Origin: Sphagnum compactum
Taxonomy: Eukaryota
Assembly (NCBI GenBank): GCA_965153455.1
Contig: OZ234493.1
Location: forward strand, 16,978,213-17,042,212
Length of the DNA stretch: 64,000 nucleotides
Direction: 5' to 3'
Below, piece by piece: positions 15,550 to 48,489 of the stretch. Positions within the stretch are counted from its first letter, which is position 1. Each line of letters starts with the position of its first letter. A program made the position numbers and the translations under genes. Under the pieces are notes generated by a model, which saw only the letters and a program-made list of their open reading frames with translations, was not told where the DNA came from and searched no databases.

Positions 15550-18500
15550 CTAACCATCATTGTCACAACTTGTATTATCCTCTAATGTGTTGTCCATACC
15601 ATCATCTTCCTCCTCATCAGATGCATGATCAACAACCAAATCTATTGGTACAACAATAGAACCTCCTACAATTGTGGTAGGTTGAATTGATTCCTCAATA
15701 GAAACAAGAGCTTGTAGCCCTCTATAATCATCAATGTTGTTGAATCCAAACAAATTAAACTCTATAAGGTCAACTTAGATTGTTTTAGTTATTTGTCTCC
15801 CACAGGGGTATTTTTGTAGCACTACTTTCCACCCCCGTTCTAAAACTTGTTCGACATGTAAGGAGAAAACAAATGATTGATCGAAAATGGGAATAAAGGA
15901 AGAAAAATTTACAAATGTGAAGCCATACTCGTCTCGTTTGATTGTTGCACTCCTCCTAGTGTAATTTGCTTTCACCCAATTGCACAACAAAATAACTGTG
16001 TTAAGCACCCCGTAACTTAACTCTAGATTTTCTTCAACTTGGCCTCTAGATTCCATTTTTGCCAAAATTGGTCTTTGGTCATTTCAACCAGATATGCATT
16101 ATTGTTCAAAAGTTACCACTATGCCACAACCACTTGTTTTTAAATGTTCTTCGGCACTTGAAACACAAATGTGGTTGCGACAAGCATAAATGGATTGATA
16201 AGACATTGCTTCCAATGTTGGTGGCATGGACATGTGCACTGTGTCTTTGTCAATTATCTTTCCATTTTTTATAGCTGATGCAATGGAAGCCTTTATCCAC
16301 ATTACAAAGGCGGGCAATGGGGCAAGGTCATTTGGAAACACATGATTCCTCACTCATGACCAACCTTGAAGTAATAGAAATCTCTCCTTTTTTAAATTTT
16401 GAATCCTAGCTTCTATGGAATATTTCCTGCCAAAAAACCATAATACACATCAATTAGGCTTAATTTACAGCTATTCAAATTGTATGAAACTACTAGACAT
16501 TAGCTATCTAGTAGAAAAAATTGGAACTCCCTGGCATTCTACAATGTCAAACACAAAATGTTAACACAAGTTTTTAAAAACTATGCAACCTTATAATCCA
16601 ATCTTTAGTTTTTAAAAAAACATTATTCATGCCACAAAACCATTAATCCTACGTTTTGGAGCATAAAAGAATGGGCCATGTCCCAAAGGTTTGTAGTTAG
16701 AATTCATGGATGCCCACCACCTTCAAGCACTTCATCAAACATGGAAGGGGTTTTCTTTACAAGTCATTCCACACTCGATGTCTTATGGCTATAAAGTCCA
16801 CCAAATAATTCAATGCAAAATCCAAGTGCTTCTTCTAGTGCATATCTTTTTGCCATGCTACCTTCAGGTTTTGCTCTATTTCCCACATAAATGTTTCAAT
16901 GTCTTCAAGTATTGCTCCACAAGACACATCCATCATGTATGGATTGGTTCACATAATTCCAACTCCTCAACTAAATGAACCAGCAAATGTGTTATGATAT
17001 CAGAAAATGAAGGAGGGAATTTTCACTCTAGCAACACCAATGTCATTATAGCTTCATTTTTCACCTCCCCCATCGTGGCTAGATCCACAACCTTGGCACA
17101 TGGTTGTTTGAAAATCTGACACAATCAAATGATTGCCATTTTATACTCCTTAATCATAAGATGTTACATACACAAGGGCAAGATTTCTTGCATTAGAATG
17201 TGTTAGTCATGTGATTTCATGCCCTTCAAATCCACATCCTTGACCCTCTTCTTGAGTGAGGAGACATAATGTGTATGTGTCTTCAAATTCTCAATGATGT
17301 GGAGAAATCATTTTTTTTCCTCATCTATCAACACATATTTATGCTATTGGTTTAGTGGTCTTGCCTGCAACATCTTATAACCACAAATGTGAACAAATCC
17401 CACACTTTTTCAAGTCTTCCCAAATTGCTATTGTGTCCTTTGTGCCAAATATGGTTTTCAACACATTTTCACAAATATTTTTCTTCGCAATGCATCACAT
17501 CCAGTGTGTTGTGAATGAACAAACCTTGTACAATCATACTCCAACAATCATATTCCAATTCAAGAATCTAAACAATCCCAACTATAAAATAACAAGTTCA
17601 AGTTGCATCATGCATGGATGTGCAATTGATGTTTAAAAAAGTTATTATAAAAACCAAGAAATCAAAAATTGGGATTCAATGTTTTGGTTGAGGGAACTTA
17701 CTTCCCAATATGGGAGTTTAAACATGATGTTACGTCGCTTGATGCCATGTTTATGCACATGGTCCTCTTTTGCACTAGCTTTGATTTTGTAACATTGTAG
17801 CCATGCTTTGCATTCCTTGCCCCACTTTACAATATCTGATGAAATAATTCACATGGGAGCCATCATGTATTCTATTTTTCCATTGAAATCACTTCGAGCT
17901 TGCCGATAGGGATGAATCCTTGGCAAATAATGACGACTCCCACAAATTTATTCTTTTTCAATTTCTTGGAAGATTGTGATTTTTTAGTTGGGTCACAAGG
18001 TGAGCATCCCAAAAGACCTTTGGTAACACAACCTGTAAAAAGTCCATATGTTGGGAAGTCATGAATGCTCCATATGCACATATCCTTTAAATTGAACGTT
18101 GCGCCTTCTAATGAATCAAATGCCTTCACACCTTTCCACAACATTTGTAATTCTTCAATGAGAGGTTCCAAGTACATGTCCATTCTTGCAAATGTCACTA
18201 ATTCCTTGCCATGAATTATTAGGCCCAACATCAAAAAGTAGCGTTTTGTGATGAACCAAGGGGGTAGATTGTAGTTTAGTAGAATGACTGGCCATGTGGA
18301 GTGGTAAGAATTCAAATCTCCAAATGGGCTCACCCCATCTAATGCCAACCCTAATCTAATGTTGTGACTGTCAACAGAAAATTCCATCCACTTTTCAATT
18401 ATGTGTTTCCAACTCATGGAATTTGGCACACTTCAAACTAAGCCATCTATATTTGTTCCACTTTTGTGCCAAATCAAGAACTCCACCAATGTTTTGCACA

Positions 18501-27312: not shown

Positions 27313-30300
27313 TGTCGCAACCCTAGCCTTGGGCTCGCGAGAGAGCGATTACAGAGGTCAAAACACCTTGCATGGAAGATTTCCTTATATCATTGGAAAG
27401 CTATTGAAGTGTAGATGTCTAAAATGGGCTCGCACGACCCATTTGGACATCTACAACACAAGTTATGATCAAAAGAAAGGCTGGTAGTCAAATTGGCAGC
27501 TTAACTCCCGACCACTAAAAGTCAGGAATCGACCCGACTCCCTCGCGTGCAGGTGGCGTATATTGTTGGAAAGCTCTCAACGAGGGCTACAATTTTGCTT
27601 CAGACTTCATTGCAATCGGAGGTCTACACGCGAAGTTATGCGCCCCCAAAGTCGCGGGAGTCCTAGCTGTGGGAATTTCGGGACTCCCATTTGGAAGTCC
27701 TGGGACAAAAAATCATTTGGGAGTCTTGGGACAAAAAGTCATTTGGGAATCCCGGGACAAAAAGCCATTTAGATGTGGCCCCCGTGGAGAGGCGCAGAGT
27801 ATACTATATGGGGGAAGGTGATGACTTCCCCCGAGTTTGGGTCGTGGTGAGTCTTGTGAGTTCGAGGTCGCCCGTGGCTCGTCCTAACACCAAAGGTGCT
27901 CCAACATTGTATTAACCAACGTGTTGGTTGGTTTGATGCGGATTCGAATGAATAAATAAATTGTTTGTCACTATTCTTAGTTTCATCCCGGAGTTCTAGC
28001 ACACCCTCTACCCCTTTAAAGTGTTGAGAGCCAGGGAGCGTTCCCCGAGCTTCTAACCTTTTCGCTGTTTCATACTTTAGACTCATCCTAAGTCTATCAA
28101 GGAGCTTGGGAGCGCGTCACGTGGTATCAGAGCTCTGGTAGAGCTCGATTCACTTTTTGGGAGTCTCGATGGCACCCAAGAAAACCCGTAAGCCAGCTGA
28201 AGAGACCATGGTGGAAGAACCCACCTAGAACCGAGAAGTTTCGCCTGAGTCTATTGGGGAGGAGGAACCAGAAGCCCAAGGGGAGCGCGGTGATCCTGAA
28301 AGTGAAGAGGAGCAACGAAACACAGTCCTCTTCACCCTGGAGTAATTGGAGGTCCTGCTCAAAATGAATAGGCCCGACTTCAATGAATTGGTTGTGGCCC
28401 TCAAAAGAGGATCATCCAAAAGTGCGGGATTCCAACCTGCTAAGCCTGGGAACTTCGATGGGGTTTGCGACCGAAAGTTTGTGGATGCTTGGCTTGTGGA
28501 AATGGAAGACTATATACATGCCGCCAAGGTTGGGCGATATTCGGCCGTGGAACTTGCCCAATCCTACTTAAAGGGTTATGCCTCCACCTAGTGGAGGACA
28601 TTGAAACAAGAGGAAGGGAAGAACCATGGTTATACTTGGGAATTCTTTAAAGAACGTGTCGAGTCAGAATTTATTCCAAAGAATTCTGACTACATTTCAA
28701 GGTGCAAACTCCGCGACCTTGTGAATGCTATAAATGACAACTTGCACCAATATGTGAGGGCATATTCCGAACTCATGTTTGAGATCTGGCACATGCATGA
28801 GCTGGATCGTGTGTGCCATTTTGTGATGGGGCTTCCAATTTGGGCCAAGCGTAAGCTTGAGGAGAATTGGCCTGCCTCACTATTCGAGGCCATCATGTAA
28901 ATGGAAGGCTTTTCGAATGTGGGACAAGGTGAAAAATCCGGGTTCAAGAAGGACAACAAGTTCCTTCACAAGAAACCACGCCATGAAAGGGAATGGAACC
29001 GAGGGCAAGACACCTCAAAGGGGAAATAACCCAAACAATTCCAAGGCTCAGGGTTCAAGCCCCAAAAGAAATTTTGTTAAGAAGGGGGCTCCTTTTAAAG
29101 CAAGCCAACCCAAGGGGGATGTTGGTGGGAAGCGTAAAAGAGCATGTTTTAACTGCAATGAAGTGGGGCATTACTCCAAAAATTGCCCCAAATCCAAATT
29201 GGGGAATGGGGGCTCTAAGGTAATTGCCCTCTTCGCCAACCTAGCCCAAGCTGAATGTAATTGCTTCATTTTCTTGAAGGGGAAGATTGCTAAGCGAGAT
29301 GTGTTGTGCCTTTTGGACATAAGGGTTTCACACAACTTCATAACCCAAGAAAGTGCCGAAAGGATGGAGCTCCAATTGGAGGAGCTCAAGGCACCCATTG
29401 AGGTGCACTTTGCGGATGGGGTTCCCCATCCCACTACGTTACAAGAGACATGCCTCTCCAACTAGGAAATTCAAAAGGAAAGGTGGATTTGTTGGTTTCC
29501 ACCTTTGGGGGGATGGATTGCATTTTGGGAATGGAATTCATCACCCATAATAATGTGCGCATAGAAGGGCGCAATAGATTAGTTAAAATCTCGGCCAAAA
29601 ACGGGATCGTGCGGGTGAAGGCACATGAAGTGCTTAGTGTGGGTGGATCAACCATCCATTTGATGTTAGGAAAAACTTGGGAAAAAAAATGCGTGGGAAG
29701 TTACGGCATGTTGTGTGTGATGCGGGTGTTGGATGAGTTTGAGCCTAAGGAAGCTACCAACTTGGTGACTTTTCCCAAGTGCATTGAACGAGTTTTGGAT
29801 GAGTTCCCGGATGTGATGCTCGAAGAACTATCCGAAGACTTGCCCCCAAGAAGACAAGTTGACCATGCAATAGAGGTGATGCCGGGAATGGCACCTCCCG
29901 CTAAGGCCCCATATCAAATGAGCCATGAGGAGCTGAAAAAACTTAAGGTTCAACTTGAAGAACTCCTCACAAAGGGATACATTAAACCAAACAAATCACC
30001 ATATGGGGCACCCGTCCTTTTTGTGAACAAAAAGGCTGGGACGTTGAGGATGTGTGTGGATTATAGAGCCCTCAACAAGGTGACGGTGAAGAACCGATAT
30101 CCATTACCTCGGATCGATGTTCTCTTTGATCGACTTTCGGGAGCTAAAGTGTTTAGTAAGATTGACCTACGTTCGAGGTATTACCAAATTTGAATTGCGG
30201 AAGGGGATGATGAAAAGACCGTTTGTCACACAAGGTATGGTTCATACAAGTTCTTGGTGATGCCTTTTGGGCTCACCAATGCACCCGCCACATTTTGCAC

Positions 30301-33300
30301 TCTCTTGAATGACATTTTCCGGGAATGGCTTGATGACTTCGTCATTGTATACATAGTCAACATTTTGATCTATAACGGCTCTATGGAGGAGCATGTGAAG
30401 TACCTTTGGAAGGTGTTCCAAAAGTTAAGGGAAAACAAATTGTATGCCAAGTTTGAGAAATGTGAATTTGGGGTGACAAAAGTGAACTTCCTTGGACATA
30501 GGATCATTCAAGAAGGCTTGGAGATGGATGATCACAAGATGAAGGCAATTTTGGATTGGGACCCGCCTAGGTCGGTCCCGGCCTTGAGATCCTTCTTAGG
30601 ATTGGCCTCTTATTATCGCAACTTCATCAAGAACTTTGCGAAGATAGCCGCACCTTTGACAAACCTTTTGAAGAAGTCTTTCGAAACTTACGAATGGGAT
30701 GGAACATGCAAGGAGGCCTTTGAAACCTTGAAAGGCATTTTGGTGAAAGCGCTAGTGTTGAAATTACCTGACTTTGACAAGATTTTGAGATTCACTTCGA
30801 TGCCTCCAACTTTGCGATTGGAGGAGTCCTAGTGCAAAATGGAAGGCTGGTGGCATTCGAAAGCAAGAAGTTGAGTGAGACGGAACGAAGGTGGCCAACA
30901 CATGAGAAGGAAATGTGGGCCGTCATACATTGTTTTAAGACTTGGGGCCATTAGATAGGTTCCAAAGATTTGGTGGTGTAGATTGACAATGTCACCTTGA
31001 AATACTTTACCACTCAGCCAAAGTTGTCATCAAAACAAGTGAGATGGCAAGACACATTGGCCTTATTCAATGTGGACAATCGACATAAGCCTAGGAAGGA
31101 AAACGTGGTGTTTGATGCTCCAAGTCGAAATCACCAACTTAAAGTGGTGTATGGGGGGGAAATAAAACTTCAAAAGGAAGTTTGATTAGCGAGTCGTCGT
31201 GACGAATTCACCAAGGAAGTGAGGCAAAACATTCAAAAGGGAATCAAGTCACACTTCCACTTGTGAAATGGACTATTGTGGTATAAGCAAAATCGTCTTT
31301 ATGTTCCGGAAGGGAGGATGAGGGAAGTGTTATTGAAGGAATGTCATGATGGGCCGCTTGCGAGCCATGGTGGTGCAAAACGCACCACAACATTCCTCAA
31401 GAAGTCCTACTATTAGCTTAATTTAAAAGACGATGCAGAGGAGTACGTGAAGACTTGCTTAACTTACCAACAAAATAGGACATTCAACAAGAAACAAGTA
31501 GGGTTGTTGCGACCATTACCGATTCCTAAAAGGCCGTGGGAAAGTGTGTCCATGAATTTCATGGTGAGCCTACCACCATCAAGGGGTTTTGATGCCATCA
31601 TGGTGGTGGTGGATCGATTTAGCAAGATGGCACACTTCATTCCCACCAAGGATAGTGCCACGACCCAAAAGACGAGAAGGTTGTTCTTCACGCACGTGTT
31701 CAAGCATCATGGCCTCCCAAAGGACATAGTCTCAGATTGAGACCCAAAGTTCACGAGCAAGTTTTGGCGAGCCCTATGGAAGCGCATGGGGTTGGAACTC
31801 AAGATGAGCACCTCTTTCCGACCCCAAATCGATGGACAAACCAAGAGGGTGAACTTGGTTATCCAACAATTCTTAATGAATTATGTGGCGACGGATCAAC
31901 AAGATTGGGTGGACCACTTGGAGTTGGCCGAATTTTGTTATAACAATTCGGAACATTCCGCAATTGGGTCCACCCCCTTTCAAATGGTGACAAGCAAGTC
32001 ACCAATTGTGCCGATGACTTGGGCAGCACATGGACAACCTCCAAGTGATGCAAATGAGGAAGTGCTGATGGTGACACAAGAAAAGAGGCAACTTTTGTGG
32101 GAGATGGCGAAGGCCAACTTGGAAAAGGCGCACAAGCGGTATAAGGATTTTGTGAACAAGTCCCGACGAAAGGTGAATTTTGAAGAAGGGGATGAAGTGT
32201 GGTTGAACATCAAAAATTTTCGATTGCCAGAAGGTTTGAACCACAAGTTCTTGGGCCCATATGCGGGTCCATTCTAAGTGTTGGAAAAGAAATTTCCCAA
32301 CACTTACAAGTTAGAACTACCGGAAAATCTTAGAGTTCATCCCACATTTCACGTTTCGCTTTTGAAGCCGGTCACCCGTGATGCCTCAAGGCCTAATCGA
32401 GAGCACAACTCAAGGCCCCCACCAGACTTGGTTCATAATGAACCAGAATTTGAAGTGGAAGCCGTGTTCAAGTCAAGGCAATTAAGGGGGTGAGAGAGGG
32501 AATACTTAGTTAAGTGGAAGGATACCATCCAATAGAGGCATTTTAGGTGAATGAATCCGATATGGAACATGCCCAAGAAGCCATAGAAGAATTCCACAAT
32601 AGACCGGCAAAGAAGCAAAAGAGACATAGAACGTGATGAAGACATCACCTTTCTTTTAGTGGGCAGGGAGTCACACAAATGTACCACATCAAGTTGCAAG
32701 TGAAATAAAGGTTTAAAAAATTCCAAGAGATTGCATCACAAACATAATGAATATTACAAAAAAGGGTTGTCAAATGGCATGGACAAATGGAACTCTCTTG
32801 CGTAAACCCAAATCAAAATCGGATTCCCACATTCAGGCTAAGAGAAACCTTGGCCCCAAAAGAGGAGGCAAGCAACGTGAGCTTGCGGGGACATGCACAT
32901 GTTCGAAGTGCATCCCAAAGGGTTAGTTGGTAGTGGCGGCCAACGCAGGAAGTCATGACTTCGTTCATGTACTATAATCGTGTAATTTGGGACTTGGGTT
33001 TTCGCAAAACCCAAATGTCGCTTCTCGTACCTTGATAAACATACCTTTAGTTAATGCTTGATTGTTGTGATCAAGGCGCAAGGTTAGGAAAGGAGTCATG
33101 TCAAGTAGCTTAGGTCAAGATTAGACTTGACTTGGGTGCTTCATGAGGGAAAGGATGGAATAATCGCCTCCCAAATGAGGGCTTCGTCAATTAGGCTAGT
33201 TTAGGTCTTTTGACGAAGTAAAGGTTAAAGGTTTTTATGAGACCTTCTTGGACTTGCCAAGGAAATGTTAGAAACTTGGGGACGCTTAAGTTAGCTTGAT

Positions 33301-40400: not shown

Positions 40401-41418
40401 ACCAGGCTCAGGAAAGTCTTTGAGTATTCCTCACTGTTCATGGAATTCTGATTCAAAAGATCCACACAAGGTATTAACATCACAAGCTGGAACCTCTCAG
40501 CATCTCCAAGTGTGCATGCTTCTATTTTTCTTTCATGCAAAACAGCTCAATGGATAGACCCAAGACCGGAATCCTTAAACTTAACCAGTCTATCCTTGTT
40601 GATTCAGGAAGGGTCTTATTGAAAATGTATAAGATGGTTGAATCACATACAACTAGGTAGGTCCTAATCAATACATACCATCTGTGGGAGAGGTAGGAGA
40701 CCATTGGAACTATAACCCTGAAATTTCACACAGAAAAAATTAGGCCTGGTATCTTCCAAAACTTCAAAGCATACCAGCCAACCTGCATTTTGCCCAGAAA
40801 CAACACTGCACGACACCAACATTTGTACCTTGTCCAGAAGAGGAACAACATGCTGAAGGTGATACAAAACCAAGCGCATTGGCAAGATAGCATTGTCCAT
40901 GCAGCTATTCAATCCTTCCTTCTCAATTCCTGTTTTCCACACAGCCTGGATTCCCACAAGTAAAGGCATTAGTTGATGTTTTACAACCCATGAACTTGAG
41001 CTTGAACCAACTACAAATTAAGTTGACTGATGTCTCAACAAGCTTTTGATTACTTTAACGTAAAGATCAAAGTCATTACACTAGTGGCTAGGACTCATCA
41101 TGGTGCCTTGAAAGTAGTTTTGGGTTGAATTCACTACAAGGTCGTGCTAAATGATGGGCAGGAGCACATGGATACATGAAGGTCACTGGTAAATAGGTCA
41201 TCAAAAAAGTACAAAACGATTTAGGGTTTAGGGTCACACAATCTACTATAATCCACATTGGTCCAATTGTGTGAAACTCTTGCGACCTGCTGAATGGTAC
41301 ACATCAAATTTAGAATAAAAGTCAGAATCAAAGCCAGGTTCAGCAGATGTTCGAAAACACAGTCCAAAAAGGGATTTAACTACTCACCAAGAGAGTAAGG
41401 GCAAGCTCATTGCAAACA

Positions 41419-42325
41419 TCATCGAAATGCTGACCAAATTCTCTTGAGCACAATTAAGTTGTCGGGAGTGAATAAAAATTCCCCTCCAGGAATGTTTTCA
41501 GGCAGAAAGCTTCTGTGCTTGAATCTCAAGCGAAGGACCATCATATTGAACATTAGCGTTCAACGTCAGAGACTGCATCATTCCTGGAATGCGACTGTAG
41601 TTATTAGTGGACCGATTTGGTCGTGTCCTAGGAACTTCCTTCCATCGCTCTACCGAAATTTGCCGGTCTTTCCGGTCGATGCTCAACAGGATCACTATGC
41701 GAGTTTTCCCATCACTGTTGGTGATCCAAAAGGCAGCATCTCTACGCAACATAGCAAGTGACTCTGACACACCAACTTCAATCACAAAACTTGGCCATTC
41801 GTCTTCCATGTCACGAGAACAGGGTTTGTAACAGGGTTTGTAACCAATATCTGCTTCCTTTGATCTACCTCCAGGGCATCCAAATCTATCAGATCTAGTT
41901 GCTACAATTGACGTACGAAAGCCTAGAAGCACCAACTTCATATCGAACATTAAGGTAAATTCATGTGCTACACCTTCATGCATCACATCAACCATAAGTT
42001 TGACGATCTGGTCATTTGAAGTAGCCAACCTCGTCTCGTCTCACCTCGTCTCACGGATCCTATCACTCTCATCAAAACTCTCTTGACTCACATTTGTGAA
42101 TGCCAAGTATTGAGGTGTTTGTGTTCTCTCAACCAGACTCTTGAGGCGTGCCAAGCAAATTCTCTTGAAAGCAACTAAGTTTGCGAAAGGAGTGCGAGAA
42201 ATGTTAGGATATCCCATAAGCACTTCTTCCGAATCCGCATCCACCGAAGTTGGACTCAGATCCTTCAAAGTTGGACAAGATGACACAAACTCAACATCAT
42301 TCTCCCCGCCATGGTATAATGCCAT
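41419..42325 (-). pseudogene. Fungal-type PD-(D/E)xK / Uma2-like nuclease gene with two frame disruptions
   Basis: MALYHGG...QYLAFTNVSQESF (in ORF 42041-42427), then IVKLMVDVMHE...SKEADIGYKP...WPSFVIEVGVSESLAMLRRDAAFWITNSDGKTRIVILLSI (ORF 41498-42028), then a shifted tail LPENIPGGEFLFTP..RIWSAFR*. The HE / KEAD / IEVGVSES pattern is a restriction-endonuclease-fold signature. Coding region is intronless. Putative 5'UTR intron at 42342-42485. Confidence 0.7.
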
Positions 42326-44203
42326 CTTGAAGATGCTGCCCCTGAACCAGCACACACTATATTTCGATACTTGAAAACAAACATTCAATCCAAAAAACAA
42401 TTGCATCAAGTCAATCTCAAAACACAAGAAAATTGACAGAGAGAAACTATATTCAGTTCTCTAAAACTCCCAGAACATGACTTACCTAGGCTATCACTTC
42501 CACAAGAAATAACTTCCACGACTGCCAAAGGAGAGAGCTTGGATCCTGAAATGACTGCAGAGATCGAAAAGCCACAGTTCCGCAAAGTAGTGCTTCACAT
42601 CCAAAAAAATGAGAACTCCATTGAAAGGAATTGCAGACTTTATTACCCCAGAGAAATTTTACAATGCAGCAGTTGAGAAACAAATGCGCAGGTGGAAACG
42701 AACGCGAGAACATGCACGACGTCCATTCATTTGAGCACGCCAATCTGTGTAGAGTGCTCGACGTTGCGAGACGACTGGAAATGATTTCGCGTTTCGCTCG
42801 TTCATCGAGATATTTTGCCCTCTGAAATCGCCAGGTGGCGCCAAGAGCGAACCGAATGAAACGGTGACAGAGCAAAGACAACACAGGCTTGCCCACGGAA
42901 AACGTTGAGCGTCGTTCAGCTGTTGTCAATATCATCAAGAGCCGATTGATGTTGAGATTTTCTCTCTCCTTCGTTTTGTTTTGTTTTTCTACCAGGCAAT
43001 CGAATACATATTGGTGAAGAGTTGTTTGAAGTTGTTTGTTTTGCTTTTTTTCTGTTGTATCGATGCTACAAGTGTTACCTTTTGAGGATCACTTCAGTAC
43101 TTTTTCTACGTATGCTGCGTTTAGGGTCAAGCTTGCTGCGAAGGACGACATGGCGTGTTGCTCGGAACTGCTTTCTTTGCCGTATTTTCTTCGATTTGCT
43201 TGAAACAATGCACCAACATTGAACGAGCTCAGGCGTCTCGTAGCTTTGTTGCTGGACTGGTCACGTTAAGGTGCGGTATCACAACATAGATACCGGGAAC
43301 AACGCCTTAGTAGAGATGGAGAAATCTGCCTGAAGCTGCCTTAGGCTCAATAGCTGTACCTGGAAAGAGCTTTTGGAGTCGAGACGGAGCTTTAAAATCT
43401 TCTCTTCGAATTTGATGTGTTGAGCTTTGTCTCTCGCGTGAGGATGCAACACTGACAATCTTTTCGGAGCAAGAATCTTTCACCGCTTGCTGCGTCTGAG
43501 GCAATCGAAGCAATAAGAACGGCCTGCTTCGTTTCTTCACTTTTTAAAGAGGTTTTGCACAAACTCTTTTCTTATCTTCATGAGTCGTACGCCATATGCT
43601 GTGTGTAGACTCGGGCTCTCAAGAACCTGTAGTTGTCTTACACTTCGAACTACATATGCCTACTTTTGCCACATCAATGCCTTCCTTGCTTTTCGTTTGA
43701 AGAGCAAGACTTGCCATGTTTTGTGTAGGTTAGGCTGTTCTGAAATCTTAGACCTCTGCACTGGTGTAGGGTTCTAAGGTGAAGCGCGTATTAGTCTTGC
43801 AAGACTGTTAGATATGCTGCGGCTGCAAAGTTGTACTATAATTCTTGATGATGACCTACAGGTCTCTTGCATTCTACATTGCCTTACAGAGTTAATATTC
43901 ATCTCCAAGAAGGTTGGTCTGACAGAGATGTGGAGAACCATCAAAGGAACTGTGAATTTTTGTATGCAAGATTGCTTTGATCCATGTTTTGATGTTGTTG
44001 AATTGCTTTTGTAGAACAAGGCTTTGCTTTATACTCCATTTTTTGTATGGTCGTGTTTCTAGCCAAGAGGTGTAAGAGAATGCTGGTTACACATCCTGTC
44101 AAAATATCCTGCAGCGCATTCTGCAGCATCAGTGTCTTTTGTGTCTTTTGTGTCTTTTGGCTGTCTGAGTTTTTCCAAGGCTGGAATCTCAATTGATCAC
44201 CAG

Positions 44204-46339
44204 GCATCTCTTCTTTGACTATGATAAAGAGATTCTATCACATAGTTTGTTCTGCAGTCCCTTCTGCACTGATAAGTTGCACAGAGAGGACTTTGTCGAC
44301 CTTATCAACTGTGGCCAGACAGTGAGTACTAGCTATTTCAACATACTGTCATCCTCTTCCTCCTTTGTCTTGCAACCAGGGCAGTATGGAGCAGACAGCT
44401 GGCCCACTTCCCACTGATGATGTCTCTCATGTTGTGTACCTTGGAGAGGAAGCAGCACCTCTTTTTCCTCTGGCTGAACATTGTGAACTTCCAAGCATTT
44501 CTGCAGATGTTGTGAGTGCAATTCTTCTCCAACTTTCTAAGTCTATCCATATTTGCCAATGACAACCTTATGTCAATGTTTGTCAAACCAGTGAACAACA
44601 ATAGCTGAGAGAATACAATGACCTGTATCAAGGGGACATAACATTTAAGCACTGGAAGTTCTTTGCTGTACTTCCATAATTTCATTCTAGCATGTTGAGT
44701 GCCTGGCATTGGCAGTTTTGAGAAGCAGGAACTTGTCAGGGGTCACAAATTTTATTTTCCTGCTCTGTTGAAATGACTTCTTAAGATATTGTAAATCACA
44801 TCTGTTCTAGAGCCTCAGCATGCAACAAGAATGTTGAATGTGATGGTGTCTGGATATTGAACTTCTTGATGAAAGCATCAGCTAACACTTTCTTTTCAAG
44901 TCTTACTGCAGTTGAAGTCAATCTTAACTGAAGAGCAAGGGTATTCAGCTCAATCAGTTGTGATAGTAGATTCACGCCATCATTTTGAATATGAAGGTGG
45001 CCACATCAAGGTACACCATTCATGGATTACAGCTGCCTCAGTTTCATTTTCCAGAAACTAATGAAAATTTTCTATGACCCAGTTGGTGATTACAATGTTT
45101 CACCTCTTCGATTCATGGATTGGTTACAATTGATGATTGTCCTCATGTACCCTGTCTTGTCAGGGTGCGGTTAATCTTAGAGACCCCAGTGCTATTGAGG
45201 AATTCTACTCTAGGAATATCAATGTTGGGAAGCAGATTGCAATTGTCTTCCACTGTGAGTTCTCTTCCTCAAGGGCACCAAAGCTGTAAGTACACAAACA
45301 TCTTAAACCTTGGCTTCTTACCTATGAATTGTTATACATACCTTCAGTGTTAAGGTGATTAATTGTTGACATAGATATATATATTTCTGATAGTTCTTGG
45401 TAGTGATGATTTTTCTGGTATGTTTGCTTAGGGGTTTTAGCAACATATATCACTCCTAATTGGAGACAGTATATAACCTGTGTGCTCCAGCACACTTGAG
45501 AACTCTCCTGAAAAGTTCCATGTTGCCAAGCTCATAGACTTGGTCTCCACATATTTGGTTTAGTTCATTGCAAGCTGTTTGTATGTAGAAGCTGGGTTGT
45601 GCTTTGTGAGTTGCATGTAGACTTTACACTTGTATTTCTCATATTTTCATTTGCAGTTTCAAGCACATGCGCAACTTGGACAGGCTGGCACATATGGAAA
45701 CCTATCCAGAGTTGGCATTCCCAAACATGTTTCTTCTGAAAGGGGGGTACAAGGCCTTCTTTGAGCTTTATTCGGTGAGCCACTTGCAAATTCTCTGCAC
45801 AAATCTCACACCCTGATCTGTCATGGTACAGTTATTCTGCCTGCAGCAATTTTGCTTGAATTGGTAGTCTCTTCTGATACACAACTCTAGAGATCGAGAG
45901 ACTGAGAGAGAGAGAGAGAATACACCAGGTTGGGACATTATTTTCAGATCTTTCAACCTTGAAGCAGTCAAATGGGGCCCTTTCCAACTCATGGTGACCC
46001 ATTTGTACAGACTTATCTTTGAATGTTTTCAGCCTAGCTCACAATTGAGCATTCCAAATATGTGTATCTGTCACACTTATCTTTCTTTACCATGTGCAGG
46101 AACTCTGTGTGCCGAGAGAATATGTAAAGATGTCTGATCCAAAATTTGTGGACCATCTTCGTGTTTCATCCAGTTCCTTGAAGAGGAGTTGGATCCAACG
46201 GTCAAAAGATTTCATTGATTCTCACTGTGGAGATCGTGATGAACCTCTTATTGATGTCTCAAGTGTACATCAGAAAGAAAAAGTAAATACTACATGCAAA
46301 TGCCCCATCTCTTTACGATTTAATCAACAAGTGCTCTAG
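44204..46339 (+). CDS. CDC25: Cdc25-type M-phase inducer phosphatase (rhodanese fold); spliced, 5' end unresolved
   Basis: In-frame GT-AG exons 44204-44321, 44380-44511, 44912-45010, 45164-45285, 45657-45774 and 46100-46339. They give ...LPSISADV|LKSIL..VVIVDSRHHFEYEGGHIK|GAVNL..IAIVFHCEFSSSRAPKL|FKHMRNLDR..YPELAFPNMFLLKGGYKAFF..|ELCVPREYVKMSDP. No internal stops. Confidence 0.9.
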
Positions 46340-46580
46340 GGATGCCACTAAATGTAGAGCTGAGGGTTGATCTTTTGACTCTCAATATTCTGCAGCCCTT
46401 GCTGAACTTGATCCAGACAACCTGGATCCAAGAACCTGGACAAAGGACAGTGTCCCCTGTTTCGTTACTTCCCACAAGGAGCTATGTGGCAGGTTCTTAG
46501 ATCATGTCAGTTAGAGTGCAGATGCAAAACCTGAAGGACTTCGTTGTCTACTTGTTGCACTTGACATCCAGGATTGTCCA

Positions 46581-46714
46581 CCACTCAAGTATTTTCCGTG
46601 AGTTGATTGTTGTGTGCATGTTTGGTTGCAACATGAATTCCATGGACTTCCCACTCAAGTATTTTCAGTGAGTTGATTGTTGTGTGCATGTTTGGTTGCA
46701 ACATGAATTCCATG
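46581..46714. repeat. ~70-bp near-perfect direct duplication downstream of the Cdc25 stop
   Basis: CCACTCAAGTATTTTC.GTGAGTTGATTGTTGTGTGCATGTTTGGTTGCAACATGAATTCCATG occurs twice in tandem. Confidence 0.9.
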
Positions 46715-48489
46715 TACTTGAGGGGAATGATAGTTGCCAGGGTGAATCACAAGCTTGTTTCAGGTTGAATGAGGATAATGCTAATGACTTTTAAAAATTT
46801 GCTATGCTTCTTGACTGTGAGCCAATTTTCATGGTTGATACCTATATTTGTTTGACTCTGCTCAAATTTTCAACACAAATCAAGACAATTTATGTAAAAT
46901 TAGGACATTAATATGATTGAATCAGCTTTTCAAGAGGTCGAACATGTCATTTGAAGAGACTTAGGCTGTAGGTTTCATACTTATAATCTAACTATATACT
47001 TGGAATGGTGGAGACTGTATGTCAATGTAAGGTTAAAAGAATGCACTAGTGTTAGGGTAAATATGCCCACATCAAACACAGGCTGGTGATCAAGCACCTA
47101 CAATAGGTTATGGCTCCTTATGACCAAATGAACAACATATGAAATTTGTGTTCAGCTTTCTTCAAGGTTCCAACCAATGGTATCATAAATGTGTTTGGTG
47201 AGGGGTGTTTGTTTGGTAATGAATGTGACATATAACAAATGTCAAAAAAAAGTGTTCAGTTATCTAAAAAAGTTGTTTGGTAATGGGTTGGGAGATGTCA
47301 CATTTCAACGGGCAAGGTTGCATGCAAATCCAGGGTATCCCAATACATGGGACTTCAAGTGTTTGACAAAAGGTGCAATGTAGTGCAAATTTTTAAAATT
47401 TAGAGTTCGGTGAGGGTAGGGTTTGGTGATGGGCTCTTACTTGTCACAATCCAATCCACAAAAAAAATAGAAATTTGGAAAAATGTATATGCATGGGGGG
47501 TTTTAAATGATTGTTTAATATTATGATGTAAAGTAGATTCATAAATTTTGAGCTCATTCTGTGAGGACCATGTTTGCTGATGGGAGGCAATTTCTTACAT
47601 TAAAAGGATACAATAGCACTATAAATGCTTTAAAACCTTAATTATCTTTCAATGCACATATAGCCTTGTTGCCTTGGGATGTTAAAACTCAAAATTTATG
47701 CACAACTTAATGGTCTTACCATAAGAATCCTTACACTTTGCATTTCCCACCAAAATAGAAACATCACAATCTCAACTCTAGAATGCCAAGCTCATTCCAA
47801 TTGTTCATCAAGTCATTCATTTCCTTCACACACTCAAAGTGTGTCCAACTCATCAACAAGTGTGCTAGACAAGTTCCAAAATTTCCTAAAGATGTTAGTT
47901 TAAAGCCTAAATATGAAGAGGATAGAATAGATGTGAAAGGAGAAGGCCAATTTGATGATTGCATAATTTTAACAAAGTTTACAAAGAATAGTTTACCAAG
48001 TATGTGTATTATTATTGGATACAACAATTTGTAATTGTCCCACAAGTAGGAAAGAATGTAAAGAAAGTTATCATAGAATGTGCTGCAATTCATAGAAGCT
48101 TAAAAATCACCTACGACCTACACAACAACAATAGATGAGGATTTAGATTAGGAAGATTTTTCAGATTTTTTTATTTCATCTATTTATTAGAATGACAAAA
48201 TGGCATGATGTTTCTTTTTTTAATCTTTTTTTTTTTTCCTTCCCCTAGTATAATTATAGGAAGGACAAGGGCATACCTTTTGTGAGGCCTAGGTGAAAAC
48301 CCCCAACTTGCTTAAGGTTAAGACTAGGAGGACCAAGCTCATAAAATGTTCAATTTGCCTTGTAAGGGAATGAGCCACTTGTTGGATGAGCCAACTATGG
48401 ATAAGGAAAATGTCCCACCTCAACTTACATCACATTCAAAGCAAAAATTCAATAAGAGAAAATAAGATCCTTGTTGCAAATTGAAGACA

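Follow-up and report, generated by a model that had tools for sequence, protein, structure and literature searches.

That land plants seem to lack a true Cdc25 was a textbook puzzle for two decades (Boudolf et al. 2006, as cited in PMC13237563), and it was indeed the standard view, as an earlier note on the DNA described here had stated, until the appearance of PMC13237563 (Plant Cell, April 2026), which covers 27 species. That study recognises a clade of canonical CDC25 proteins with bryophyte and charophyte members, the one from Marchantia being named MpCDC25;1, which corresponds to Mp4g01900 in PMC11799827. MpCDC25;1 is G2/M-specific in Marchantia single-cell data, and the Arabidopsis-type MpCDC25;2 is ubiquitous; the Arabidopsis-type proteins (CDC25/ACR2) form a separate, streptophyte-specific clade, and canonical CDC25 is stated to have been lost in vascular plants (PMC13237563). 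The available text contains no mention of Sphagnum or Ginkgo and by its own account samples no gymnosperm, and Physcomitrium v6.1 is included. Here, a 64,000-nucleotide stretch of the Sphagnum compactum genome (contig OZ234493.1, positions 16,978,213 to 17,042,212; hereafter the window, numbered from its first letter) is described, which holds an intact, transcribed and spliced gene for a canonical (animal/yeast-type) Cdc25 catalytic domain, and not one of the ACR2/Arabidopsis type.

Canonical Cdc25 in bryophytes is therefore already published, and the Sphagnum gene model is itself already public under uninformative names; by its own test, the earlier note's expectation of novelty lapses, as bryophyte orthologues are described in the available text of PMC13237563. 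For mosses the literature is sparse: the portions of PMC3969565 available mention CDC25 and Physcomitrella and are silent on any moss CDC25, a literature search pairing 'CDC25' with 'Sphagnum' found no paper, and a search on CDC25 in gymnosperms or Ginkgo returned nothing relevant among the best 10 matches listed, as judged from that listing.

The gene occupies window positions 42982 to about 46870 on the plus strand and has six exons, five of them coding, whose spliced frame (44386-44511, 44912-45010, 45164-45285, 45657-45774 and 46100-46339) amounts to 705 bases, or 234 codons and a stop. The encoded protein is little more than the canonical Cdc25 catalytic domain: about 27 residues precede a conserved LFPL.EHCELPSIS block, and the active-site loop, H105-C106-E-F-S-S-S-R112, is encoded at 45251-45274 (Cys codon 45254-45256, Arg codon 45272-45274). 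Over 25 plant, amoebozoan and animal sequences 26 alignment columns are invariant, with C106, E107, F108, S109, R112, R121, D124, R125, Y132 and P133 among them, and the moss protein keeps all 26. The family motifs lie where the earlier note had placed them, with DSRHHFEYEGGHIK in 44912-45010, the active site in 45164-45285, the R..DR..YP block in 45657-45774 and C.P.EYV.M.D at the start of 46100-46339, and the gene does, as that note remarked, escape simple calling of open reading frames, the longest stop-to-stop frame within it being 96 residues.

Rhodanese (PF00581, E-value 7.5e-13) is the only Pfam match of the full-length protein, in a test that used P0002, a Sphagnum protein with 5 of its 234 residues unlike those of the window protein; on the same protein Pfam found no PF06617, the N-terminal domain of metazoan members. 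Taken singly, four of the five coding exons are without a Pfam match, and exon 3 gives a weak Rhodanese match (E 0.013). A sequence search of solved structures returned human CDC25A, CDC25B and CDC25C as its 12 best distinct sequences (E 1.2e-30 to 2e-26, over query residues 30-193), whereas outside CDC25 the same search gave Leishmania ACR2 (2j6p) at 1.6e-6, the rhodanese domain of MKP5 at 0.018 and Arabidopsis CDC25 (1t3k) at 0.09. An AlphaFold model, built with the 25-sequence alignment, has a mean predicted local distance difference test score of 81.5, exceeds 90 for 147 residues, is disordered only at residues 1-21 and 211-234, and carries a long C-terminal helix at residues 169-196. With this model, Foldseek placed chains of human CDC25A/B/C at all of ranks 1-14 (E 3.4e-16 to 6.8e-14; template modelling (TM) score on the target 0.72-0.83), followed by ACR2 (2.3e-7) and yeast Ygr203w (2e-6); 1t3k was absent from the matches shown, down to rank 50. 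The protein thus has a rhodanese-fold domain, a C-E-F-S-S-x-R loop and a position nearer to Cdc25 than to ACR2 or other rhodaneses, the last judged from E-values, the fold ranking and the published orthologue tree, as our own tree holds no ACR2-type sequences. The E-value of 0.09 to 1t3k places it outside the streptophyte-specific clade of small CDC25/ACR2 proteins. The earlier note's central claim, of a canonical Cdc25 that does not group with ACR2, is accordingly borne out by E-values, fold ranking and RNA splicing.

The window protein is identical to one annotated from Sphagnum compactum as an 'unnamed protein product' (P0376), which also agrees with the earlier note's assignment of the DNA to a moss, as do the labels (moss or plant metagenome) of the RNA libraries in which it occurs. 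Of the five exon translations, four matched P0376 at 100%, and the fifth, for which the tool took the first TTG as M and MAFFT scattered the fragment, is identical by eye. P0376 carries exactly the five residues that separate the window protein from P0002, a 234-residue 'hypothetical protein' that was retrieved, together with a Sphagnum tenellum protein, by a query with exon 4. The 90% cluster of P0002 has 17 members, of which 15 are listed, including 234-residue proteins of S. fallax, S. jensenii, S. troendelagicum, S. compactum, S. magellanicum and S. balticum; they are called 'hypothetical' or 'unnamed' in NCBI, and several are called 'protein-tyrosine-phosphatase' in UniRef. With S. tenellum included, seven named Sphagnum species carry an annotation of the protein, on chromosome-scale contigs. 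The S. tenellum model in NCBI (P0004, 217 residues) skips exon 3, with its D-x-R...EYEGGHIK motif, and has another 3' end, matching window 46393-46497; it falls under the Pfam Rhodanese threshold (16.2 bits against a cut-off of 22.2) and looks like an annotation error rather than a real variant.

The exon structure is fixed by RNA. Of 24 public runs listed, 20 contain some or all of the stretch, 14 contain at least half of its words and 6 are recorded as RNA; other studies supplied five of these six, as libraries labelled 'moss metagenome' or 'plant metagenome'. Two kinds of RNA data were placed on 40500-47500: raw poly-A reads from a related organism (run X24) and three metatranscriptome contig sets (X15, X17 and X18), of which X17 and X18 yield equal numbers and may be one data set. 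All four introns internal to the coding region have AG/GT ends, and their joints were recovered on the plus strand in X24 reads and in one contig each of X15, X17 and X18: 44511>44912 (2 reads), 45010>45164 (2), 45285>45657 (3) and 45774>46100 (14). Upstream of these, the leader joint 43551>44380 was seen in five X24 reads and in one contig of each of the three sets, and a minor acceptor was used in the joint 43551>44385 (three X24 reads, no contig). Every joint of the gene is GT..AG on the plus strand, and the first mates of X24 over the gene lie on the minus strand.

Exon 1 (42982-43551) is a non-coding 5' leader of 570 nucleotides, delimited by RNA contigs at 42982-43552 (X15, X17) and 42994-43552 (X18) and covered by X24 at a depth of 3.4-12.4 on the gene strand; it contains several upstream ATGs, visible as short frames that begin with M. 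Intron 1 (43552-44379, 828 nucleotides, GT..AG; its joints listed as 43549>44378 and 43549>44383, with the cut at +2) has its second acceptor, 44385, 5 nucleotides downstream of the first. When the leader is joined to 44380 or to 44385, the frame that feeds the start codon contains a stop and no upstream ATG, so that no usable start precedes the ATG at 44386 and exon 1 stays untranslated; a TGA at 44323-44325 closes the upstream frame even in a form that retains intron 1. Exon 2 (44380-44511) encodes residues 1-42 from the start codon at 44386-44388 and includes the LFPL.EHCELPSIS block; its translation is 100% identical to residues 1-42 of P0376. Exon 3 (44912-45010) encodes residues 43-75, with the DSRHHFEYEGGHIK motif at its end and the invariant D62, R64, E68, G71, G72, H73 and I74. 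Exon 4 (45164-45285) encodes residues 76-115 and two bases of codon 116, and its active-site region can be read directly as GAVNL...FHCEFSSSRAP. Exon 5 (45657-45774) encodes residues 116-155, with R121, R125, Y132 and an LLKGGYK block, and the coding part of exon 6 (46100-46339) encodes residues 156-234, with the C.P.EYV.M motif, the C-terminal helix and a TAG stop at 46337-46339; it is 100% identical to P0376, and no joint inside it is among the RNA joints listed. The 3' untranslated region can be traced over 46340-46873: X24 depth is 14 at 46350-46583 and 0.23 at 46818-47051, and the contigs of X17 and X18 end at 46873.

These joints decide between two parts of the earlier gene model. Its six exons stand as far as exons 2-6 are concerned, which match the RNA joints exactly; its first exon, at 44204-44321 within intron 1, has an open frame that would fit that of 44380, yet the RNA joints listed do not include 44321>44380 and show 43551>44380 instead. 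An N-terminal extension of at least about 80 residues, also proposed there, gives way to a protein of 234 residues, the frame upstream of 44386 having a stop and no ATG. Intron 1 is itself less simple than a single splice would imply. Within it, X24 depth rises from 0.73 and 1.78 (43542-44009) to 6.6 and 8.3 (44010-44477), and an unspliced contig of 880 nucleotides lies over 43523-44407 in X15, X17 and X18; exon-like depth over about 44010-44379, together with this contig, indicates that intron 1 is partly retained or that a second start site lies inside it. An S. magellanicum isoform of 256 residues (P0379) carries 22 extra N-terminal residues that begin like the window frame at about 43815-43861 (MLRLQSC...), which suggests that intron 1 contains an alternative first exon; the RNA joints listed include none for it.

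Repeats were seen in two untranslated parts of the gene. At 44132-44159 a 9-bp unit, GTGTCTTTT, stands in 3.1 copies, and 9 bases are absent at 44132 in all seven X24 reads of relatives; in the 3' untranslated region, a 70-bp unit is repeated in tandem at 46581-46719 (2.0 copies, 97% matches), and the RNA of relatives has a single copy (joint 46649>46717, 67 bases skipped).

What the enzyme acts on can be approached through the human complex. In the available text of PMC11316097, which presents a cryo-electron microscopy structure of cyclin-dependent kinase 2 (CDK2), cyclin A and CDC25A, residues R446, E447, R450 and Y455 of CDC25A bind the GDSEID motif of the CDK, S435 and R437 bind its glycine-rich loop, and the C-terminal helix, on which R506, S513 and K514 are pivotal, is required for CDK-cyclin binding. 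In a HMMER alignment, R446, R450 and Y455 have identical counterparts in R121, R125 and Y132 of the moss protein, S435 and R437 in S110 and R112, and, on the C-terminal helix, R506 in R184 and S513 in S190; K514 equals K191 only if the alignment is extended one residue beyond its end at query 190. Positions of CDC25A along the aligned chain were numbered by us, with C431 and T507 of PMC11316097 as fixed points. Five residues outside the active site that would take part in docking (R121, R125, Y132, R184 and S190) are thus identical by alignment. An annotated S. magellanicum isoform of 176 residues (P0380) switches frame after residue 155 and so is without the C-terminal helix; if real, it would be a docking-deficient variant, and no matching joint is among the RNA joints listed.

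The reading that we favour, at a probability of roughly 0.7, is that the gene encodes a minimal canonical Cdc25, vertically inherited, that dephosphorylates Thr14/Tyr15 of a CDK at G2/M. The moss protein would dock on the CDK-cyclin complex through R121, R125, Y132 and its basic C-terminal helix, as its aligned residues suggest, and C106 would act as the nucleophile of the H-C-X5-R active site, removing the inhibitory phosphates placed by WEE on the glycine-rich loop of the CDK (Thr14/Tyr15) and so promoting mitotic entry. As the N-terminal regulatory domain is absent, control probably lies in transcription and in the long leader with its upstream ATGs, rather than in N-terminal phosphorylation. 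We infer the CDK substrate and the role from the conserved docking residues and the expression of the Marchantia orthologue, and the moss gene is plausibly a retained part of a WEE/Cdc25 module.

Several points weigh against this reading. One of the four residues that bind GDSEID is changed, N122 standing in place of E447 of CDC25A; R502, K504 and R520 of the helix have no identical counterpart in the HMMER alignment; and the moss loop has S-S-S-R where the human enzymes have S-S-E-R. The long N-terminal regulatory domain, with its phosphorylation and 14-3-3 sites, is missing, although that domain is a defining trait of the opisthokont proteins, not of the catalytic family, and other streptophyte members are likewise short (190-379 residues). 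The RNA evidence stems from close relatives rather than the individual that supplied the window, as the X24 reads (n=254) are mostly 95-99% identical to the window (23 at 99% or more, 170 at 95-99% and 61 at 90-95%). In Arabidopsis, dephosphorylation of CDKA;1 at Thr14/Tyr15 has been reported to be dispensable for normal growth; if it is, the switch may matter less in plants.

A different role for the same fold and active site, such as that of an arsenate reductase or of a phosphatase with another substrate, in place of CDK activation, is an unlikely explanation. Such a role was concluded for the small Arabidopsis 'CDC25'/ACR2, and the moss protein resembles it in consisting of the catalytic domain only (234 residues, only PF00581). 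The ACR2-type proteins share the fold and the HCX5R loop and are detectable relatives (2j6p at 1.6e-6 in sequence, 2.3e-7 with Foldseek), and the GDSEID-contact residue E447 is not kept. The moss protein is nevertheless about 24 orders of magnitude nearer to human CDC25 than to ACR2 or Arabidopsis CDC25, and it has CDK/cyclin-docking residues, conserved or invariant, for which an arsenate reductase would have no need. According to the available text of PMC13237563, moreover, bryophytes keep a separate Arabidopsis-type protein, MpCDC25;2, for that role, and the Marchantia orthologue of the moss gene is expressed specifically at G2/M.

It is very improbable that the gene is a decaying relic, still transcribed after selection for its function has gone. 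Such decay would fit the loss of canonical CDC25 from many plant lineages, reported in PMC13237563, the lack of any moss other than Sphagnum among the close matches listed, and the RNA over part of intron 1 together with truncated isoforms annotated in S. magellanicum (P0380). It is at odds with a 234-residue frame that is intact in at least six Sphagnum species, with scattered substitutions only, with the retention of all 26 invariant columns, and with splice sites that are canonical and used.

The favoured minimal Cdc25 is also supported in its vertical descent. A near-length search gave 317 proteins at E<=0.001 out of 403 candidates, of which the best 120 were listed. Fragments aside, the matches below 1e-38 were from Sphagnum, Riccia (two), Marchantia (MpCDC25_1), Calypogeia, Ginkgo (two), Klebsormidium and Mesotaenium, with three unnamed transcripts, and animal Cdc25s at about 40% identity came next. 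The best named relative among the matches listed was MpCDC25_1 (54% identity over 97% of the query, E 3.5e-72), and the nearest non-plant relatives were amoebozoan and animal Cdc25s at about 40-45% identity. Among proteins longer than 410 residues, no streptophyte was found in the best 120 of 647 matches (E<=0.001; 1061 candidates), the top of which were Balamuthia and a chlorophyte. An exhaustive HMMER search with 3154 matches at E<=0.001, 62 of them at E<=1e-30, added a Mesostigma protein of 379 residues (P0243). No Ostreococcus sequence was among the matches listed.

A tree was built from 171 catalytic-domain columns of 32 proteins, hand-picked for taxonomic spread, and the window model; the mis-modelled P0004 and the fragments P0001, P0003, P0005, P0017 and P0018 were left out, fungal, Ostreococcus and ACR2-type sequences are not represented, and the only chlorophyte is [Myrmecia] bisecta (P0126). 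A first tree from whole proteins was discarded, as 548 columns, mostly N-terminal, were poorly aligned. The nesting obtained was (chlorophyte,(Klebsormidium,(Mesotaenium,(Ginkgo,(Sphagnum,liverworts))))), with supports of 99/99 for the window protein and P0002, 81/67 for the liverworts, 90/90 for Ginkgo, 94/92 for Mesotaenium with an unnamed transcript, 87/62 for Klebsormidium and 95/80 for the chlorophyte. A choanoflagellate sequence (Mylnosiga, P0006) and an unnamed transcript adjoin the green clade (94/91), an oddity that is taken as deep-branch uncertainty on 171 columns. Since the gene tree matches the plant species tree, vertical descent is indicated and reacquisition or contamination argued against, and the Sphagnum gene is, on its sequence, probably the moss orthologue of MpCDC25;1, descended vertically from a green-algal ancestor.

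The 'reacquired' alternative left open by the earlier note loses its ground with this tree. That the gene is foreign to the moss, whether as animal or protist contamination or by horizontal transfer, is exceedingly improbable: moss samples do contain many eukaryotic associates, and the nearest relatives outside plants are the amoebozoan and animal Cdc25s named above, but the tree reproduces plant phylogeny, the surrounding 64 kb carries plant-type transposon remains, the 14 runs with half or more of the stretch's words bear four organism labels and one plant metagenome, and seven Sphagnum species have the gene annotated.

Two aspects of its distribution bear on when plants lost Cdc25. Ginkgo biloba has two adjacent-numbered proteins (P0012 and P0013; EukProt Gb_10572 and Gb_10573), of 192 and 190 residues, with canonical-type Cdc25 domains; their identity to the moss protein is about 50% (E 5.8e-52 and 8.4e-50), and they fall within the land-plant clade on a long branch (support 90/90). 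These copies are at odds with the statement of PMC13237563 that the gene was lost once, at the origin of vascular plants. Among mosses, none other than Sphagnum was found in the close matches listed, and in the exhaustive HMMER search the liverworts (272 bits) are followed directly by Ginkgo (187 bits), with no 50% cluster in between. The gene may have been lost from other mosses, a weak suggestion drawn from the best 120 of 317 matches and from 50% clusters, which can hide members. A tentative scenario, to which we would give somewhat less than an even chance, is that Cdc25 was kept into the seed plants and later lost repeatedly and independently, including in most mosses other than Sphagnum, and that the surviving plant form, a catalytic domain with a docking helix, is timed by transcription and an upstream-ATG-rich leader, in a WEE/Cdc25 switch wired unlike that of animals and fungi.

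The surroundings of the gene are as expected for a plant nuclear genome, which the transposase and reverse-transcriptase remains fit. The window is AT-rich (GC fraction 0.21-0.47 in 2-kb windows) and contains a tnp2 (CACTA-type) transposase fragment at 17872-18432 on the minus strand (PF02992, E 5.5e-51) and a broken retroelement at 28827-32277 on the plus strand, with gag-like, reverse-transcriptase and integrase-like frames interrupted by stops, the reverse-transcriptase part lying at 29402-30832 (RVT_1, E 2.7e-17). Next to the Cdc25 gene, a divergent neighbour at 40500-42600 on the minus strand is expressed (X24 first mates on the plus strand only; depth up to 9.7), and no Pfam family matched its long frames at 41498-42040 and 42041-42460. 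No more than about 400 bp separate its 5' end from the Cdc25 leader, and the two genes may share a promoter region.

If bryophyte proteins do activate CDKs, the ancestral WEE/Cdc25 switch was present in the first land plants and dismantled later, a point already in print for Marchantia and charophytes in the available portions of PMC13237563. The window adds a moss member whose structure is verified by RNA, from a lineage (Sphagnum) that the text of that study does not sample; it suggests that the plant proteins, though reduced to the catalytic domain, keep putative CDK/cyclin-docking residues; it gives a hint of absence from other mosses; and it draws attention to a Ginkgo pair that complicates the statement 'lost in vascular plants'.

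Of the described systems, MpCDC25;1 (P0009) is the closest: it has the motif set in common with the Sphagnum protein, both have a Rhodanese domain only, both carry a two-residue insertion before the Y-P motif that is absent from the animal rows of the alignment, and in the tree the liverworts form the sister group of the Sphagnum protein. At 301 residues, MpCDC25;1 differs in having about 70 extra N-terminal residues of low conservation, to which nothing in the window corresponds; tblastn did align Marchantia residues 18-114 with 44260-44526 (E 6e-9), but this match was rejected, as its score comes from the part after 44440, and it runs through a stop with little similarity upstream of 44386. 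The ACR2-type proteins (1t3k, Leishmania 2j6p and yeast Ygr203w, 3f4a) are like the Sphagnum protein in their rhodanese fold, HCX5R-type loop, small size and lack of a regulatory domain, but 2j6p and 3f4a are remote from it in Foldseek (TM score on the target 0.63, 22-24% identity). Human CDC25A/B/C (1c25, 8roz, 1qb0, 3op3) show 32-38% identity to the Sphagnum model in Foldseek and appear from alignment to share with it the catalytic Cys and Arg, the docking Arg, Arg and Tyr and the three pivotal helix residues; unlike them, the Sphagnum protein has no N-terminal regulatory domain, has N122 for E447 and carries the two-residue insertion before Y132. Within the green lineage, the Cdc25 of Ostreococcus tauri is likewise canonical, and it has been reported to be functional (Khadaroo et al. 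2004, as cited in the available text of PMC13237563).

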